Source of the DNA: a virus
Lineage: Duplodnaviria; Heunggongvirae; Uroviricota; Caudoviricetes
Strand: one strand, 5' to 3'
DNA length: 64,000 nucleotides
Virus record (IMG/VR): IMGVR_UViG_2974574300_000001
Coordinates: 1 to 64,000 of that record
The position numbers were made by a program, and so were the translations under genes. Below the pieces are notes generated by a model that saw only the letters and a program-made list of their open reading frames with translations, made no database searches and was not told the DNA's origin. Position 1 is the stretch's first letter. Each line of letters begins with the position of its first letter. Shown here piece by piece: positions 2,154 to 58,548 of the stretch.

Positions 2154-2230
2154 CTCTGTTTAGCTCAGCTTGGTAGAGCGTTCCGTTTGGGGCGGTAAGG
2201 CCGGAGGTTCAAGTCCTCCAACAGAGACCA
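2154..2230 (+). tRNA. tRNA-Pro (anticodon TGG)
   Basis: 7 bp acceptor CTCTGTT/AACAGAG, D-arm GCTC..GAGC, anticodon loop TTTGGGG, T-arm GGAGG-TTCAAGT-CCTCC, encoded CCA. Confidence 0.75.
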
Positions 2231-2237
2231 AATTAAT

Positions 2238-2315
2238 GTTCCAGTAGACAAAATGGTATAGTCACCACTCTTTCAAAGTGGATATTTGAGGGTTCAAATC
2301 CCTTCTGGAACGCCA
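2238..2315 (+). tRNA. tRNA-Glu (anticodon TTC)
   Basis: acceptor GTTCCAG/CTGGAAC, anticodon stem CCACT/AGTGG loop CTTTCAA, T-arm GAGGG-TTCAAAT-CCCTT, CCA. Confidence 0.7.
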
Positions 2316-2406
2316 GTTTTGACAGAAGACCAATTACAGCAAACTTAATCTTATTCATCTGAAGGTAAATCGGACAAAGAAGAGATTTGGTCTGGTCATT
2401 AAGAAT

Positions 2407-2483
2407 TGCGGGTATAGAGAAAGGGCGTCTCACATGTCTCATTAGCATGGTATCGGCAGGTTCGACTCCTGCACCCGCCTCCA
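2407..2483 (+). tRNA. tRNA-Met (anticodon CAT)
   Basis: anticodon stem CATGT/GCATG loop CTCATTA, T-arm GCAGG-TTCGACT-CCTGC, acceptor with 1:72 mismatch, CCA. Confidence 0.6.
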
Positions 2484-2566
2484 AATTTACAGAAGACCGT
2501 TTACAGCAATATTTATTAAATTTTTAGCGGAAAAATTGAAAGATACGGTCTGGTAATACTAAACAT

Positions 2567-2643
2567 GGTTAGGAAGCACATAAGGTATGTGCGGTCGCCT
2601 GTTAAGCGAATGGCACAGGGTTCGAATCCCTGACTAACCGCCA
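2567..2643 (+). tRNA. tRNA-Asn (anticodon GTT)
   Basis: acceptor GGTTAGG/ACTAACC, D-stem GCAC/GTGC, anticodon loop CTGTTAA, T-arm CAGGG-TTCGAAT-CCCTG, CCA. Confidence 0.7.
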
Positions 2644-2712
2644 AATTTAGGAGAGAAGCGATTGCTCACCGATTTGTAAGGTGCAAGTCCTTAGCCTGAA
2701 TAGAAATTAAAT

Positions 2713-2800
2713 GTGTCGTTATCCCGTAGATGGTAGCGGTGGGGACTGTAAATCCCTTGTCATTGAGACTCGGTAGGTTCGACTCCTACACGGCACACCA
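2713..2800 (+). tRNA. tRNA-Tyr (anticodon GTA), long variable arm
   Basis: acceptor GTGTCGT/ACGGCAC, anticodon stem GGGGA/TCCCT loop CTGTAAA, long variable arm, T-arm GTAGG-TTCGACT-CCTAC, CCA. Confidence 0.7.
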
Positions 2801-2805
2801 ATAAA

Positions 2806-2882
2806 GGTTATGTAGTTTAATTTGGTTAAAATACTCCCTGTCACGGGAGATGATGAGGGTTCAAATCCCTTCGTAACCGCCA
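2806..2882 (+). tRNA. tRNA-Asp (anticodon GTC)
   Basis: acceptor GGTTATG/CGTAACC, canonical Asp anticodon loop CTGTCAC (weak stem), T-arm GAGGG-TTCAAAT-CCCTT, CCA. Confidence 0.6.
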
Positions 2883-3310
2883 ATTTTGAGAGGGCTATTT
2901 AGCCCCTCCCTTAAAGAGTTCTTACGAGTATTCTTTAAAGGAGCAGAAGACCAAATTCAGCAAGTTACTTAAAATTTCAAGCCAATTTAATTTTGAAAAA
3001 TTTAAAACTTGGTCTGGCTCAACAAATTTACAGAAGACCATTTACAGCAAAACTTAAACAATCTATTTCTCGGTAAAGAAAAGGAGAAGGTTCGATTCCT
3101 TCACTCGGCAGGTGTCGAGTTGGTGTAATGGTAGCACTTAAGATGATAAACAACGGTCTGGTAATTATCTTTGTAGATAAGTTATTAAGCTTACCTGTGA
3201 GTATGCGACCACAAAGGGTGAAAGGGTAAATTCTAGATTTAAACCCAAAAAGGCACATCGCTACAGACCTTAAGCAAGTCTGGGTAGCTTATCTACAAAG
3301 ATAATTTAAT

Positions 3311-3386
3311 GGAAGTGTAGCAGAATGGTGATGCGGCAGACTTTTAATCTGACAGGCGATGGGTTCGAATCCCTCCACTTCTACCA
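3311..3386 (+). tRNA. tRNA-Lys (anticodon TTT)
   Basis: acceptor GGAAGTG/CACTTCT, anticodon loop CTTTTAA, T-loop TTCGAAT, CCA. Confidence 0.65.
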
Positions 3387-3390
3387 ATAT

Positions 3391-3467
3391 GGTTCAGTCG
3401 CAGATAAGGTAATGCAAGGGTCTCATAAGCCCTATGAATGTGGGTTCGATTCCCATCTGAACCTCCA
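3391..3467 (+). tRNA. tRNA-Met or tRNA-Ile2 (anticodon CAT)
   Basis: acceptor GGTTCAG/CTGAACC, anticodon stem AGGGT/GCCCT loop CTCATAA, T-arm GTGGG-TTCGATT-CCCAT, CCA. Confidence 0.7.
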
Positions 3468-3469
3468 AT

Positions 3470-3544
3470 TGTGGGTTAGCATAAATGGTAATGCAAACGG
3501 CTGATAACCGTTAGAAGAGGGTTCGATACCCTCACCTACAACCA
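3470..3544 (+). tRNA. tRNA-Ile (anticodon GAT)
   Basis: acceptor TGTGGGT/ACCTACA, anticodon stem AACGG/CCGTT loop CTGATAA, T-arm GAGGG-TTCGATA-CCCTC, CCA. Confidence 0.7.
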
Positions 3545-3559
3545 ATTTCAATAAAGTTG

Positions 3560-3588
3560 TTGACATTGAGATGTGACTACTTTATAGT
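3560..3588 (+). promoter_or_regulatory. sigma70-like promoter (TTGACA-17-TATAGT) inside tRNA array
   Basis: TTGACA 3560-3565, 17 nt spacer, TATAGT 3583-3588. Confidence 0.6.
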
Positions 3589-3880
3589 AACTAAAATACT
3601 TCAGAATATGTATAATTCAAACACCAATACATGAGCGTTAGACGTAACACAATGTGGGGAAATTTGTTGTACATATTCTGAATAGTTTTCGTTGCGTAGC
3701 GTCTATTTTGCAAATTTAAAATAAATGCAAACGACAATGTTTTTCTGGCAGTAGCTTGATAGGCTAAACACCAGTGAGGTCTTCCAATCCCTCATCAAAG
3801 AATTTGGCGTACTAGCCACGGTATGATTAATAAGGTGGGCATCTTTAAGGGCTTTCTAAGAGAGTCTTTAAAGATAATTA

Positions 3881-3962
3881 CGGGGCGTATCTCAGCGGTC
3901 TTCTAAACCGCCGTTAACCGAGTAAGTGGAGTATGCGGGTTCGAGTCCTGCCGCCTCGACCA
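3881..3962 (+). tRNA. non-canonical tRNA-like gene (anticodon-like hairpin with TCT, no clear D-arm)
   Basis: acceptor CGGGGCG/CGCCTCG, T-arm GCGGG-TTCGAGT-CCTGC, CCA; only a 5 bp/7 nt hairpin GCGGT-CTTCTAA-ACCGC placed where the D-arm should be, followed by 23 nt extra region. Confidence 0.45.
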
Positions 3963-4104
3963 ATTAGTTAGCAGATTACTTAGACGACCTAAGCGGGTCT
4001 TCCTGTAGGGAGGTGGTCTGTATCTCATGTTTTCCAGAACATGTAAATAATCTGAGAAGGGGCTTTACAGTGTTGAGATAATACGGTAAGCTTCGAATTA
4101 TAGT

Positions 4105-4187
4105 ATGGGACGATGTTAAGACTCTAAGGCATGAGCAACGGCTTCCAACACCGTTTCAAAGGGGTTCAACTCCTCCGTCCCATGCCA
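4105..4187 (+). tRNA. non-canonical tRNA-like gene (aberrant D region; anticodon uncertain, possibly CCA)
   Basis: perfect 7 bp acceptor ATGGGAC/GTCCCAT, T-loop TTCAACT, CCA; 26 nt between acceptor and candidate anticodon hairpin ACGGC-TTCCAAC-ACCGT. Confidence 0.45.
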
Positions 4188-4200
4188 AAGTCTTATTAGG

Positions 4201-4288
4201 GGTAGGTAGCGGCTAATGGTAGCCAAACTGTCTTGAAAACAGTTGCCACTGTAGAGATACGGTGAGGGTTCGACTCCTTTACTTACCG
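4201..4288 (+). tRNA. tRNA-Ser (anticodon TGA), type II
   Basis: acceptor GGTAGGT/ACTTACC, 3 bp D-stem, anticodon stem ACTGT/ACAGT loop CTTGAAA, long variable arm, T-loop TTCGACT; CCA not fully encoded. Confidence 0.7.
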
Positions 4289-4545
4289 CCTAATAAGATT
4301 TAAAGCCAAGCTTCATTCGGATGTTGCTTTGGTATCCCTCGTGTATTGTCGTACACACTGATAAAACACCTAGTAGGTGTCACGGAGAAGAGATAATATC
4401 AAGCTCTCCAAAGGTTCTAGTCACCGGATTAAACAAGACTATGCAAAGACCTTTTTAGGTCTTTTTAGAGGGCTTCTAAGGTTATTACAGCTTGTTGTGG
4501 AACCTTGTTGCTTAGGTTCTTAGAAGTTCTCTAAAAAGATTTAAT

Positions 4546-4623
4546 GGGAGATTGACGGTAATTGGTAAACCTACCTCGCTTAGAACGAGGTGTTTGAGGG
4601 TTCGAATCCCTTGTCTCCTACCA
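4546..4623 (+). tRNA. tRNA with anticodon TAG (Leu by anticodon) but short variable arm
   Basis: acceptor GGGAGAT/GTCTCCT, anticodon stem CCTCG/CGAGG loop CTTAGAA, 5 nt variable loop, T-arm GAGGG-TTCGAAT-CCCTT, CCA. Confidence 0.6.
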
Positions 4624-4630
4624 AATTAAT

Positions 4631-4706
4631 GCAGGTGTAGCAAAATGGTTATGCGGCTGACTCTTAATCAGTAAGACGATGGGTTCAATTCCCTCCACCT
4701 GTACCA
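4631..4706 (+). tRNA. tRNA-Lys (anticodon CTT)
   Basis: acceptor GCAGGTG/CACCTGT, anticodon loop CTCTTAA, T-loop TTCAATT, CCA; paralog of 3311-3386. Confidence 0.6.
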
Positions 4707-4712
4707 AACATT

Positions 4713-4788
4713 GGGGATGTAGTTTACATGGTTAAAACATAAGTTTTGCAAACTTGGGAACTGAGTTCAATTCTCAGTGACTCCACCA
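4713..4788 (+). tRNA. tRNA-Ala (anticodon TGC)
   Basis: G3:U70 in acceptor, anticodon stem TAAGT/ACTTG loop TTTGCAA, T-arm CTGAG-TTCAATT-CTCAG, CCA. Confidence 0.6.
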
Positions 4789-4794
4789 ATTAGT

Positions 4795-4869
4795 GCATCC
4801 ATAGTTTAAACGGGAAAATTACAGTCTTCCAAACTGAGGTTGAGGGTTCGATTCCCTCTGGATGCTCCA
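4795..4869 (+). tRNA. tRNA-Trp (anticodon CCA)
   Basis: acceptor GCATCCA/TGGATGC, anticodon loop CTTCCAA, T-arm GAGGG-TTCGATT-CCCTC, CCA. Confidence 0.7.
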
Positions 4870-4875
4870 AACAAT

Positions 4876-4952
4876 GCTGCTTTCGTATAATTGGCTATTA
4901 CACATCCCTTGTAAGGATGGAAATGCAGGTTCGAGTCCTGTGAGCAGCACCA
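4876..4952 (+). tRNA. tRNA-Thr (anticodon TGT)
   Basis: acceptor GCTGCTT/GAGCAGC, anticodon stem CATCC/GGATG loop CTTGTAA, T-arm GCAGG-TTCGAGT-CCTGT, CCA. Confidence 0.7.
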
Positions 4953-5047
4953 ATTCAGAGGTCAAGTGAAAGACCGCTGGTGTCAACTGAAGACCGTAAC
5001 AAATTCCACGGAGTTGAGTTAGCGGCACAACTTCAGACCTCTTTCAC

Positions 5048-5122
5048 ACTCGCTTAGTTTATATGGTAAAACATCACCCTTACAAGATGAAGAAAAAGGT
5101 TCAAGTCCTTTAGTGAGTACCA
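5048..5122 (+). tRNA. tRNA-Val (anticodon TAC)
   Basis: acceptor ACTCGCT/AGTGAGT, D-stem GTTT/AAAC, anticodon loop CTTACAA, T-arm AAAGG-TTCAAGT-CCTTT, CCA. Confidence 0.65.
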
Positions 5123-5123
5123 T

Positions 5124-5202
5124 GTTCCAGTATCCCAATTGGCAGAGAGGCCAGACTTAAAATCTGTGTTATGTATCGGTTCGAATCCGATATGGAGTAC
5201 CA
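5124..5202 (+). tRNA. tRNA with anticodon TAA (Leu by anticodon), short variable arm
   Basis: acceptor GTTCCAG/ATGGAGT (6 of 7 pairs), anticodon stem CCAGA/TCTGT loop CTTAAAA, T-arm ATCGG-TTCGAAT-CCGAT, CCA. Confidence 0.5.
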
Positions 5203-5207
5203 ATTTT

Positions 5208-5283
5208 AGCGGTATAGCATAACTGGCAATGCAGCAGTCTCTGAAGCTGTCCTATTAAGGTTCAAATCCTTATGCCGCTGCCA
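5208..5283 (+). tRNA. tRNA-Gln (anticodon CTG)
   Basis: acceptor AGCGGTA/TGCCGCT, anticodon loop CTCTGAA, T-arm TAAGG-TTCAAAT-CCTTA, CCA. Confidence 0.6.
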
Positions 5284-5314
5284 CTTCTAAGGGTTCTTAC
5301 GAGAGTCCTTAAAT

Positions 5315-5390
5315 GTGGCCTTATCATAAACGGTAATGACCCATGCTGTGAACATGGTCTATACGGGTTCAAATCCCGTAGGTCACCCCA
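5315..5390 (+). tRNA. tRNA-His (anticodon GTG)
   Basis: acceptor GTGGCCT/AGGTCAC, discriminator C, anticodon stem CCATG/CATGG loop CTGTGAA, T-arm ACGGG-TTCAAAT-CCCGT, CCA. Confidence 0.7.
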
Positions 5391-5396
5391 ATTTAT

Positions 5397-5472
5397 AGTC
5401 CAAGTAGCTTATATGGTTAAAGCGCGTGTCTGAAAAACATGAGAAGAGGGTTCAAATCCCACTGGACTACCA
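5397..5472 (+). tRNA. tRNA-Phe (anticodon GAA)
   Basis: D-stem GCTT/AAGC, anticodon stem CGTGT/ACATG loop CTGAAAA, T-loop TTCAAAT, CCA. Confidence 0.65.
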
Positions 5473-5489
5473 ATTTTCAAAGGTGCTTA

Positions 5490-6224
5490 ATGAAAGAGAT
5501 GACAGGACAAGGTAAGGAGATTTTTAATCTCTTAAAAACCGGTAAAGGGTTTTCTAACCCACTTATTACTGGTGCAGTAGTTCTCGGTGGAACCGTAGCT
5601 GCCTCTACATCACTTGTAAGCTCTATTAGCTCTGTAACAGACCCTACAATGAAGGAGAAGCTTGTTGCTGCTGGACTCACAACAGTCCTTCTAAACAGCT
5701 TTACAACAAGCCTGACAAGCACTACAGCAACTACTAAGACCCTAACAGACTATGGTCAAAAGTCTATTGATGAGTTTTCATCACGTATGCAGGTAGCAAA
5801 GGGGTATTCCAATGTTATGGGTGCAGCAGGAGAACAAGTTGGTTGTACACCATTTAGTGGTATTATGGGTGTTGCTACAGAGTATGGTCAGCAAGCTATT
5901 GACACGATTAACAGCACACTAGACAGTGTTAACGGTGTGTTAAGTGACTTACAAGACGCTATTGATAAGGGTCTTGATACTGTTTCTGATTTAGCTAACC
6001 AAGCTGTTAGCAAGATTAATGAAGGTATCTCAAAGATTACAGCTTATGCAGATGAAGTTGTGCAGATGATTGAAGAAGAAGCTGCCCTTATTGCAGAGTA
6101 CCTTAAAACGAATATCAATGGGTTCTTAGCAGGTATCTTACCAGACTGGTTTGATGATGCTTGGAAAACTGGTGTAATCGACACTATTGCAACACCAGAA
6201 ATGAAGAACGCATTACAGAAATAA
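5490..6224 (+). CDS. hypothetical protein (Ser/Thr-rich N-terminal half)
   Basis: ORF track 5439-6224 trimmed to first ATG after tRNA-Phe; AGGTG RBS. Confidence 0.5.
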   Translation: MKEMTGQGKEIFNLLKTGKGFSNPLITGAVVLGGTVAASTSLVSSISSVTDPTMKEKLVAAGLTTVLLNSFTTSLTSTTATTKTLTDYGQKSIDEFSSRMQVAKGYSNVMGAAGEQVGCTPFSGIMGVATEYGQQAIDTINSTLDSVNGVLSDLQDAIDKGLDTVSDLANQAVSKINEGISKITAYADEVVQMIEEEAALIAEYLKTNINGFLAGILPDWFDDAWKTGVIDTIATPEMKNALQK

Positions 6225-6225
6225 T

Positions 6226-6318
6226 GGAAGATTAACCCTAAAAGGTAAGGGAGCAGTTTGCTAAACTGCCAGTAGCTGAGAAATCGGTGTACCAGTTCAA
6301 GTCTGGTATCTTCCTCCA
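6226..6318 (+). tRNA. tRNA-Ser (anticodon GCT), type II
   Basis: perfect acceptor GGAAGAT/ATCTTCC, 3 bp D-stem CCC/GGG, anticodon stem GCAGT/ACTGC loop TTGCTAA, long variable arm, T-arm ACCAG-TTCAAGT-CTGGT, CCA. Confidence 0.75.
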
Positions 6319-6322
6319 ATCT

Positions 6323-6398
6323 GAATCCGTGACAGAAATGGATATGTGCCTGTCTGCAAAACAGGTTTATAAGGGTTCAAGTCCCTTCGGATTCTCCA
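6323..6398 (+). tRNA. tRNA-Cys (anticodon GCA)
   Basis: acceptor GAATCCG/CGGATTC, anticodon stem CCTGT/ACAGG loop CTGCAAA, T-arm AAGGG-TTCAAGT-CCCTT, CCA. Confidence 0.75.
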
Positions 6399-15568: not shown

Positions 15569-16921
15569 ATGTGGAATCCAATTGTTAATGTAGATATTAC
15601 ATTGAACACCGCAGGAACTACAAGAGAAGGTTTTGGTTTGCCACTATTCTTAGCTTCAACAGATAACTTTGAAGAAAGAGTGCGTGGTTACACTTCCTTA
15701 ACTGAAGTTGCTGAAGATTTCGATGAAAATACTGCTGCATATAAAGCTGCTAAACAACTTTGGAGTCAGACTCCTAAAGTAACTCAGCTTTATATCGGTA
15801 GACGCGCTATGCAGTACACTGTATCAATTCCTGATGCCGTTACCGAAAGTACAGACTACTCAATTACTGTAGCTGCTGGCGGTGGAATTTCTCAACCATA
15901 CCAGTACACAGCACAAAGTTCAGACACTGCTGAGGTAGTGTTACAACAGTTTAAAACACAGATTGAAGCTGACCCAACAATCAAAGATAAGGTTTCTGTG
16001 AATGTAACTGGTAGCAATGGCTCTGCCACAATGATTATTACCAAAGCTGGTGATAATGACTTTGTGAAAGTAACAACCACAGCACAGACTGTATATATTG
16101 CAAGTACAACTGCCGATACAGCAGCAACTGCTCTGGCAGCCATTGAAGCTTATTCTACTGACTGGTATTTCATTGCAGCAGAAGACAGAACTCAACAGTT
16201 TGTCTTAGCAATGGCTTCTGAGATTCAGGCTCGCAAGAAAATCTTCTTTACAGCTAACTCCGATGTAACAGCCCTGCAAGGTACAGAATTAGCCAGTGCA
16301 AATGATGTTCCAGCACAGCTTGCTAAGAATATGTACACTCGTACAGTTTGCTTGTGGCATCACGCAGCAGCAGAAGATTACCCAGAGATGGCATACATTG
16401 CTTATGGTGCTCCATATGATGCAGGTTCAATTGCTTGGGGTAATACTCAGCTAACTGGTGTAGCAGCTTCTCTACAACCATCTAATCAGAGACCTCTGAC
16501 AAGTATTCAGAAGTCTGCTTTAGATGTACGTCACTGTAACTTTATTGACCTTGATGGTGGTGTTCCAGTGGTTCGTAGAGGGATTACTTCTGGTGGGGAA
16601 TGGATTGATATCGTCCGTGGTGTTGACTGGTTAGAATCAGACCTGAAAACTTCTCTGAGAGACTTGCTAATTAACCAGAAGGGTGGTAAGATTACTTATG
16701 ATGATACTGGTATTACCCGTATTCGTCAAGTCATTGAAACCTCTCTGCAAAGAGCAGTCAACAGAAACTTCCTGTCATCTTACACAGTTAATGTTCCTAA
16801 AGCCTCTCAAGTTGCTTTAGCAGACAAGAAAGCTCGTATCCTGAAAGATGTTACCTTCGCAGGTATCTTAGCAGGGGCTATCTTGGATGTTGACTTGAAA
16901 GGTACAGTGGCTTACGAATAA
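15569..16921 (+). CDS. tail sheath or major tail protein (putative)
   Basis: 450 aa ORF followed by 148 aa tube-like gene, chaperone pair and tape measure. Confidence 0.5.
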   Translation: MWNPIVNVDITLNTAGTTREGFGLPLFLASTDNFEERVRGYTSLTEVAEDFDENTAAYKAAKQLWSQTPKVTQLYIGRRAMQYTVSIPDAVTESTDYSITVAAGGGISQPYQYTAQSSDTAEVVLQQFKTQIEADPTIKDKVSVNVTGSNGSATMIITKAGDNDFVKVTTTAQTVYIASTTADTAATALAAIEAYSTDWYFIAAEDRTQQFVLAMASEIQARKKIFFTANSDVTALQGTELASANDVPAQLAKNMYTRTVCLWHHAAAEDYPEMAYIAYGAPYDAGSIAWGNTQLTGVAASLQPSNQRPLTSIQKSALDVRHCNFIDLDGGVPVVRRGITSGGEWIDIVRGVDWLESDLKTSLRDLLINQKGGKITYDDTGITRIRQVIETSLQRAVNRNFLSSYTVNVPKASQVALADKKARILKDVTFAGILAGAILDVDLKGTVAYE

Positions 16922-16936
16922 TAGAGGTAAATTGGA

Positions 16937-17383
16937 ATGGCTATGTATCAGCAATATTCCCCTAAAGACGTTGTATGTAGCTGGAATGGTATTGCCATTG
17001 AAGGCTTTGCCCCAGACTCATTCTTGCGTCTACAGAGAACATCACCACTTGTGACACCAGTTGTTGGTGCAGGTGGTCAGGTTGCTCTGACAAGAAATGC
17101 AGACAAGACAGGTACTATTGAGATTGAGCTAATGCAGACTTCTCTCTCTAACCAGATGCTTTCTGCAATTCAAGCTAAACAAGACAATATGGAACTTGAA
17201 GTAGATATCTCTTCTAACTTCGTAATCTACGACCCATCAGGCTCTGTTCTGGCAACTGGTATTAATGCTTGGTTGCAGGAGTTGCCACAGATTGAACTTG
17301 GTCGTGACCAGAACTCTAAAACTTGGATTTTTGGTTGTGAGAAGCTAGACTATACTTCTACAATTCCAGCGTCAAGTGTTTAA
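16937..17383 (+). CDS. tail tube protein (putative)
   Basis: 148 aa ORF after sheath candidate, followed by terminator. Confidence 0.5.
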   Translation: MAMYQQYSPKDVVCSWNGIAIEGFAPDSFLRLQRTSPLVTPVVGAGGQVALTRNADKTGTIEIELMQTSLSNQMLSAIQAKQDNMELEVDISSNFVIYDPSGSVLATGINAWLQELPQIELGRDQNSKTWIFGCEKLDYTSTIPASSV

Positions 17384-17395
17384 TAAATCCTATAA

Positions 17396-17428
17396 GGGGG
17401 AGACTTTAAAAGGTCTTCCCCTTTTTTG
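17396..17428 (+). terminator. rho-independent terminator
   Basis: GGGGGAGAC-TTTAAAAG-GTCTTCCCC hairpin followed by TTTTTTG. Confidence 0.7.
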
Positions 17429-17456
17429 TTTCTTTTAAAAGTATTAAGGAATCACA

Positions 17457-17855
17457 ATGAAAACAGAATTTAGAGTAATTAATGGTAAGAAAGTAAATAT
17501 CGTTCTGCTTGGGGCAAGAGATGGTATTAAGATGTCTATGAAGTTGGGTAAAATTGTTGTCCCAACCTTTGCACAGATGCTATCAAGTCTGACTGACAAG
17601 GGTAAGAAAGAAGCTCCGATGGTTCCATTTAAAGAACTTGTTGAAGCTTGTTTTGACAGAATTGAAGAGATTAACCTTGAAGAGATGGCAACCCTGTTAT
17701 TTCAAGGGGCAACTGTTGATGACTTCCCACTTAATATTGATACGTACTTCCAAGCAAACTATGGTGAGTTCATTGATTACTTAGCATTTGCGCTGGAGGC
17801 AAACTTCGGAAGTTTTTTCGAAGCAAGCATTTTCAAAAGCCTAACTTCTCAGTAA
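17457..17855 (+). CDS. tail assembly chaperone (gpG-like)
   Basis: 132 aa acidic ORF directly upstream of tape measure; TTTTTTC slippery heptamer near 3' end. Confidence 0.55.
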   Translation: MKTEFRVINGKKVNIVLLGARDGIKMSMKLGKIVVPTFAQMLSSLTDKGKKEAPMVPFKELVEACFDRIEEINLEEMATLLFQGATVDDFPLNIDTYFQANYGEFIDYLAFALEANFGSFFEASIFKSLTSQ

Positions 17856-17857
17856 AC

Positions 17858-18096
17858 ATGGGTAATACTCTACAGACACCACTGACTGATGCTGCTGTAG
17901 AGGCAACCTATGAAGAAGCAGACGAGATGAAATTTGTGCTTGCTATTTATGGTATGGAAGGGTGTAAAGAAACACTTGACCAACTCTTTGCTATGACATT
18001 CTCTGATTTATTATCATTGAGACAATTTCTTGAAATTCAGAGGTCGTATAAAGAGGAAATTGCTTACAACGAACTTAGAAGAGCAGGAAAAATGTA

Positions 18097-18097
<1 letters not shown>
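17858..18097 (+). CDS. tail assembly chaperone T-frame segment (-1 frame, open from 17777)
   Basis: frame is -1 relative to 17457-17855 and overlaps it. Confidence 0.5.
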
Positions 18098-26113
<8,016 letters not shown>

Positions 26114-58208: not shown

Positions 58209-58548
58209 GTCTCGTCGTAGAGTAGGTTACGGAAAAGGTGAGATAATGGTTCTTTCTTTTAACAGTGCTTTATTAGGTACTTACAAAGTTAAGACCGAAC
58301 TCCTTGATGAGTGGAGAAAGTATACAAACTCACTTTTCGGTAATGTTGGAATGGAAGCCTTAGCAGAGATTGAGAAGGCTGGAACATTTGAAGTTGTCGG
58401 TAAAGGTAACTACACAATGTTCTACAAAACAAATTTAAACGTTGGTGACAGTATTGTTGGTGTCACTGAAGAAGAACTTAAAACATTTTGTGAAAAGATT
58501 GAGAGAGATACGAAATGGGACTCTGGAACAGTTTTAAATCAAAAGTAA
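58171..58548 (+). CDS. hypothetical protein
   Basis: ORF trimmed to ATG with GGAGA RBS. Confidence 0.4.
   Translation: MGGKVIVSGEPSKSRRRVGYGKGEIMVLSFNSALLGTYKVKTELLDEWRKYTNSLFGNVGMEALAEIEKAGTFEVVGKGNYTMFYKTNLNVGDSIVGVTEEELKTFCEKIERDTKWDSGTVLNQK

Follow-up and report, generated by a model that had tools for sequence, protein, structure and literature searches.

[quoted passage not shown] The window analysed here comprises 64,000 nucleotides (positions 1 to 64,000 of IMG/VR record IMGVR_UViG_2974574300_000001) and by its sequence is a Felix O1-like myophage, Salmonella phage FG1m: region 16900–20400 is 100% identical to the genome of that phage (PP068123.1, Felixounavirus) and 98–99% identical to Felix O1, Mushroom, and many others, with 295 matching phage records. 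A frameshift at this place is already known and annotated in near-identical Felix O1-like phages and is an ordinary phage feature.

Gene order, reading frames, and the predicted fusion protein

The conserved programmed -1 frameshift of tail assembly chaperones G/GT was reportedly described by Xu, Hendrix, and Duda in 2004, and the locus shows the corresponding features: two open reading frames (ORFs) between the tube and tape measure genes in the canonical G/GT arrangement, an overlap in the -1 frame, and a conserved in-register heptamer of the form X_XXY_YYZ (Table 1). The product of G has a single Pfam match, PF21822 Phage_TAC_15, whose score of 71 bits exceeds the curated gathering cutoff of 22 (E = 1.7e-19) and in which residues 9–124 align to profile positions 1–124 of 127, and it also matches PHROG 1613 "tail assembly chaperone" (E = 2e-47). 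ORF 17858–18097 matches PHROG 4963, likewise labelled "tail assembly chaperone" (E = 2.8e-55), and a search of PDB sequences with the GT fusion did not find a solved structure of a relative (best E = 0.61). The start codon of G is preceded by a Shine-Dalgarno-like AAGGAA. That of the tape measure gene overlaps the stop codon shared by T and GT (ATGTAATG, 18092–18099, + strand) and is preceded by AGGA at 18085–18088, and the tape measure gene is probably translated in coupling with the chaperone frames. Further upstream, between the end of the tube gene and the start of G, sits a strong intrinsic-terminator-like hairpin (17394–17423, + strand; 13-bp stem with 6 G-C pairs, then TTTTGTTTCT) that could plausibly leave the chaperone and tape measure genes less transcribed than those of sheath and tube.

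Table 1. Features of the tail chaperone locus in window coordinates
Feature	Position	Strand	Description
Sheath gene	15569–16921	+	PHROG 205; precedes the tube gene
Tail tube-type virion structural protein gene	16937–17383	+	Pfam PF11681 KPP10_Orf10 (E = 6e-7); PHROG 280
Gene G, tail assembly (tape measure) chaperone	17457–17855	+	Zero-frame product of 132 aa, 14.8 kDa
GGAGG, Shine-Dalgarno-like, candidate stimulator	17795–17799	+	13 nt upstream of the heptamer
Putative slippery heptamer T_TTT_TTC	17813–17819	+	Zero-frame register of G, codons aGT TTT TTC (Ser-Phe-Phe)
Conserved 22 nt GAAGCAAGCATTTTCAAAAGCC	17820–17841	+	Near-invariant across Ounavirinae; encodes G tail EASIFKS and GT linker RSKHFQKP
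T segment, -1 frame after the predicted slip	17819–18097	+	RSKHFQKPNFSVN, then 79 codons of the ORF called at 17858
Predicted GT fusion coding region	join(17457..17819,17819..18097)	+	Uninterrupted product of 213 aa, 24.3 kDa
Tape measure protein gene	18097–20325	+	Pfam PF20155 TMP_3 (E = 2.4e-17); PHROG 4036 (1532 bits)

The sequence-only reading had placed a canonical slippery heptamer in the zero-frame register of G and the downstream ORF in the -1 frame, open back to 17777, and the sequence bears out all of these positions. The heptamer begins at 17813 on the last base of a zero-frame codon of ORF 17457–17855, and the start of ORF 17858–18097 differs from that of G by 2 mod 3, which places this ORF in the -1 frame of G. 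This frame is open from 17777, directly after a stop codon at 17774–17776, to its own stop at 18095–18097 and overlaps G by 79 nt; the +1 frame is closed, being open only at 17845–17865. The predicted fusion consists of G residues 1–121, the basic linker RSKHFQKPNFSVN, and a 79-residue T domain. Its junction-spanning peptide includes ANFGSFFRSKHFQKPNFSVN, and the GT side reads ANFGSFFRSKHFQKPNFSVNMGNTLQTPLTD... as opposed to ANFGSFFE in G. Upstream of the methionine at 17858, the predicted -1 frame peptide is HFQKPNFSVNMGNTLQ..., with HFQKPNFSVNMGNTLQTPLTDAAVEATYEEADEMK as a tryptic peptide; the tryptic peptide of the GT junction itself would be around 56 residues long.

Several relatives carry this product in their annotation. 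Mushroom (AJF40599.1 / YP_009600435.1), Moogle (YP_009145710.1), and Michonne have a joined "tape measure chaperone" coding sequence with the same genes, heptamer, and product, and fusions built by slipping at TTTTTTC equal the deposited joined proteins of Mushroom and Moogle letter for letter. The Mushroom fusion differs from that of the window in one residue (D49 in Mushroom, G49 in the window). Unlike Mushroom and Moogle, the records of FG1m (PP068123.1) and RefSeq Felix O1 list two separate coding sequences without a join; for FG1m, this explains why the protein collection has no entry for its exact 213-aa fusion. The earlier proposal that the locus matches the conserved G/GT frameshift upstream of tape measure genes stands on comparative evidence only, namely gene order and heptamer conservation, together with the identity of the fusion to the joined proteins deposited for Mushroom and Moogle. 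A frameshift is mentioned in the genome announcements of Moogle and Mijalis (PMC4319497, PMC5543628). The literature that we found on Felix O1-like phages consists of genome announcements, in which we found no explicit statement of a slippery sequence, and the searchable literature yielded no direct evidence of a GT protein in these phages.

Under the proposed mechanism, most ribosomes would finish G normally and produce the 132-aa chaperone, while a minority would slip back by one base. The slip would occur while two tRNA-Phe occupy the ribosome (17814–17819), one paired with TTT in the P site and the other with TTC in the A site, and both would move simultaneously and re-pair with TTT TTT (17813–17818). 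Decoding would resume in the -1 frame at CGA (17819–17821) and end at the T stop codon. By analogy to gpG/gpGT of lambda and gpE/gpE+E' of P2, the shared G part would coat the tape measure protein encoded directly downstream and the T part would recruit tube protein, with the frequency of slipping setting the G:GT ratio and neither protein staying in the virion. The heptamer U_UU.U_UU.C belongs to those listed as frameshift-prone in E. coli (PMC4066793). The efficiency of slipping may be low, because we found neither a conserved or unusual downstream structure nor an Rfam match.

The phage also encodes its own tRNAs in a cluster at 2154–6398, including a tRNA-Phe(GAA) (5397–5472, + strand) that reads both codons of the slip site. 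For one of its 22 tRNA genes (2806–2882, + strand), ARAGORN gives "tRNA-???" and an anticodon of four bases (gtca). The gene scores 54 bits against the Rfam tRNA model in an alignment that lacks one base in the 5' half of the anticodon arm, and a perfect 5-bp stem CUCCC/GGGAG leaves a 6-nt loop UGUCAC; this gene probably encodes a tRNA-Asp(GUC) with an atypical anticodon loop.

Conservation of the heptamer across relatives

In a single genome, the heptamer is suggestive at most, because canonical in-frame X_XXY_YYZ heptamers occur at 71 of the 17,982 codon positions in the long ORFs of the window and an overlap of this size would hold at least one of them with a probability of around 9%. In-frame T_TTT_TTC occurs only once in these ORFs, at 17813, and TTTTTTC is depleted in the window as a whole (13 copies on both strands vs. 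26.4 +/- 5.2 in shuffled sequences). The only other in-frame canonical heptamer in the window that is followed by a long -1 frame, TTTAAAT (T_TTA_AAT) at 58533–58539 (+ strand), was rejected as a second recoding site: The gene that follows starts at an ATG at 58515, upstream of that heptamer and with a Shine-Dalgarno-like GAGAGAG, so that the site is an ordinary gene overlap.

We compared 55 loci, of which 9 are annotated GenBank phage loci that span Felixounavirus, Suspvirus, Mooglevirus, Kolesnikvirus (Erwinia), and Yersinia phage P778 and 46 are IMG/VR loci that include relatives with only 26–50% identity to G. Viewed by relatedness, the set contains 39 loci of Ounavirinae and related phages (at least 6 lineages) and 16 distant metagenomic relatives in that range of 26–50% identity. 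TTTTTTC is invariant and in the same register in all 55 loci, and in all of them the -1 ORF then runs to the tape measure gene. Even relatives with 26–32% protein identity and a GC content of 57–65% keep the heptamer, which in 6 of these 7 GC-rich loci is the sole T6 run of around 3.4 kb of sequence (the seventh, L050, has two). Since AGT and TTT are disfavored in the GC-rich relatives (17% of AGY codons and 36% of phenylalanine codons, respectively), the two synonymous choices that make up the heptamer are held against the compositional trend. Across this comparison, conservation of the heptamer lies far beyond what chance would give.

The location of the shift is narrowed down further by lineages in which the -1 frame opens only 1–5 codons before the heptamer, i.e., Yersinia phage P778, SUSP2, phiEa21-4, and the metagenomic loci L046 and L050. 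Because of this upstream -1 stop codon, a shift in these lineages can occur only at or after it, and the frames as read here pin the shift to the heptamer with no other site available.

Conservation is also visible at the nucleotide level. The Erwinia phages, whose G proteins are around 40% identical, match the DNA of the window by blastn only at 17802–17842 (92.7% identity), and in a codon alignment of eight lineages the sliding-window nucleotide identity peaks at 0.91–0.94 over FGSFFRSKHFQKP. Third-position identity there is 0.92–0.95 vs. around 0.45 elsewhere, which makes the site the conservation maximum of the locus. The GT fusions of the eight lineages align colinearly through the junction, and the -1 frame peptide FFR(S/G/R)K(H/L)FQKP, which lies upstream of the T start codon, is kept across the genera of Ounavirinae. 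Conservation of the Phe-Phe dipeptide and dual coding do explain part of the nucleotide conservation at the site. On this comparative evidence, the heptamer, the register in which it is read, and the colinear fusion are all under strong purifying selection.

A scan of bacterial and archaeal genomes for relatives such as prophages found none. At 90% identity, G clusters with 132-aa proteins whose database entries are assigned to bacterial assemblies, among them Staphylococcus hyicus (MCO4330224.1, WP_252560994.1) and several entries for E. coli; given that the phage is virulent and enterobacterial, these entries look as if phage DNA had contaminated the assemblies.

Competing explanations and possible stimulators

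Three other explanations of the locus deserve attention. T might be made only as a free 79-aa protein from the ATG at 17858, e.g., by termination-reinitiation, with the heptamer being incidental. This ATG falls 2 nt past the stop codon of G; the records of FG1m, Felix O1, and many others annotate T as a coding sequence of its own, and PHROG 4963 is a 79-position profile that a separately called T matches end to end. An ATG is found at or near the T start in the window and the closest genera, and a methionine near that position is also present in SUSP2, L031, and Moogle. However, no Shine-Dalgarno sequence precedes this ATG, unlike the situation at G and at the tape measure gene, and the methionine is not conserved in position: An ATG for T is absent from the Erwinia phages and L037, and P778 offers only a TTG. 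Conservation of the -1 frame peptide upstream of the ATG also speaks against exclusive separate initiation, which moreover leaves unexplained why the synonymous T at 17813 and the choice of TTT over TTC are invariant, especially in the GC-rich relatives. We therefore consider a T protein made solely in this manner highly unlikely, though separate initiation could possibly contribute as a minor additional route beside the frameshift. The notion that the heptamer is just a chance by-product of a conserved Ser-Phe-Phe motif, with no functional recoding, can draw on the conserved Phe-Phe dipeptide and on the chance rate of heptamers in overlaps of this size given above. Yet no lineage departs from NNT followed by TTT, although other third positions have diverged almost to saturation, and a homologous -1 ORF always follows the heptamer and always ends at the tape measure gene. 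Judged by this conservation, pure chance is excluded, and we regard a by-product without function as the least credible explanation, with a probability that is close to negligible.

The GT protein could also arise by transcription if RNA polymerase slipped on the T6 run and added one U, possibly aided by a weak hairpin at 17793–17809; the protein would be identical to that made by a ribosomal slip. A terminator-pattern scan does flag this hairpin (CTGGAG/CTTCGG, 6 bp with 2 G-U pairs), which is followed by AAG and the T run. Bacterial RNA polymerase usually needs a run of around 8–9 to slip, for which six is short, and all 55 loci have precisely six T and then C, with no longer run in any of them. 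The hairpin in turn is lost in L037, P778, and the Erwinia phages and is without covariation, so that the locus has neither a run of around 8–9 or more nor a conserved hairpin abutting a shorter one. Hairpin-assisted transcriptional slippage is a known mechanism, but it acts by forward realignment of the RNA 3' end (PMC5009743), which should delete a base and thus lead into the closed +1 frame. Slippage of RNA polymerase therefore appears very improbable, marginally more so than a T protein made only by separate initiation, and a ribosomal slip at TTTTTTC is the reading that we prefer.

For this ribosomal slip, the sequence-only reading had suggested a search for a downstream stimulatory hairpin or pseudoknot, which turned up no conserved structure in either single folds or a consensus fold of eight lineages. 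The stretch of 61 nt that follows the heptamer has a predicted fold of -3.4 kcal/mol (z = +1.4), with no stem-loop or pseudoknot of the dnaX type, and the consensus fold reaches -1.2 kcal/mol without covariation. Folds of the 61 and 101 nt 3' of the heptamer in the window and three relatives gave nothing stable or conserved, and a permissive Rfam scan of 17400–18200 returned only a chance match on the opposite strand (E = 1.7). A hairpin at around 17857–17912 was rejected as a stimulator: It starts around 37 nt downstream and is not conserved (z = -1.65). The site thus appears to lack a strong RNA stimulator.

In the GC-rich metagenomic relatives, hairpins 3' of the heptamer reach predicted energies down to -32 kcal/mol, and these were rejected as well, given that most fold no better than shuffled sequences of the same composition. 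Long GC-rich hairpins are predicted 3 nt after TTTTTTC in L046 (1849–1888) and L049 (1876–1915), two IMG/VR loci with 62–63% GC. The 60-nt stretches fold at -32 and -24 kcal/mol, which is no better than composition-matched shuffles (z = -1.1 and +0.8, respectively), and the best of the GC-rich hairpins is that of L050 (z = -2.0; 5 of 200 shuffles fold as well). A structural stimulator that is missing from the Felix O1 group may be in use in the lineages of L046 and L049.

Two further elements flank the heptamer. The 22 nt directly downstream (Table 1) are not kept in relatives outside the subfamily that still keep the heptamer, and they show no stable or conserved fold. Since almost any substitution in this stretch alters one of two peptides, we attribute its conservation to the two overlapping reading frames. 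The upstream GGAGG is present in Felixounavirus, Suspvirus, Mooglevirus, and L040–L045 and is replaced by a GAA-containing sequence in L037, Yersinia phage P778, and the Erwinia phages. Shine-Dalgarno-like stimulators were sought 6–17 nt upstream of frameshift motifs by Sharma et al. (PMC4066793), and we infer that GGAGG could be a lineage-specific stimulator like that of dnaX. That the frequency of slipping is set by such signals other than a hairpin, i.e., pairing of GGAGG with 16S rRNA or action of the downstream 22 nt as an RNA or nascent-peptide element, seems rather unlikely; if true, it would amount to lineage-specific tuning of a G/GT frameshift that is usually deemed unstimulated.

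Annotation of the locus and comparison with known systems

The around 300 related records are inconsistent in their annotation of this locus. Mushroom, Moogle, and Michonne have the joined coding sequence, and most others call T separately as a protein of 75–79 aa (NC_005282.1, PP068123.1, and others) under labels such as "head closure protein" or "hypothetical"; these separate calls appear to be the basis of PHROG 4963. We suggest that FG1m, RefSeq Felix O1, and many of the around 300 records should carry the join given in Table 1 (in window coordinates). The G/GT paradigm gains nothing conceptually from this locus, and the useful output is the correction of annotations. Salmonella typing and biocontrol both make use of Felix O1-like phages, and correct models of the tail genes help anyone who engineers these phages. 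Retention of the heptamer from AT-rich enterobacterial phages to metagenomic relatives with 65% GC also makes the locus a clean case of selection on a recoding signal.

Among known recoding sites, E. coli dnaX combines a Shine-Dalgarno-like stimulator upstream of its heptamer with a downstream hairpin; the GGAGG of the window, a possible counterpart of the former, lies within the range of 6–17 nt searched by Sharma et al. Different from dnaX, the downstream hairpin is absent, the heptamer and the biological role are others, and GGAGG is missing in some of the lineages that keep the heptamer. The closer parallel among myophages is P2, in which gpE/gpE+E' is produced by slipping at TTTTTTG without a downstream structure (PMC3091744). 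In both phages, the chaperone pair is flanked by the tube and tape measure genes and the heptamer is of the type T6N, with no downstream stimulatory structure, but the last base is C here and G in P2, and the products differ in size (132 and 213 aa here vs. 91 aa for E and 142 aa for E+E'). Sequence similarity of G to the P2 chaperone was not detected, with PF21822 as the only Pfam match of G.

Phage lambda slips on G_GGA_AAG with tRNA-Gly and tRNA-Lys. In this phage, a low-level -1 slip near the end of the G gene sets the proportion of G to GT; the target of both proteins is the tape measure protein, and virions contain neither of them (PMC5009743). Unlike the phage studied here, lambda is a siphophage, and no sequence homology between the two systems is detectable; by analogy, however, the chaperone pair of the Felix O1-like phages would follow the genetic logic of gpG/gpGT of lambda and presumably serve the same function.
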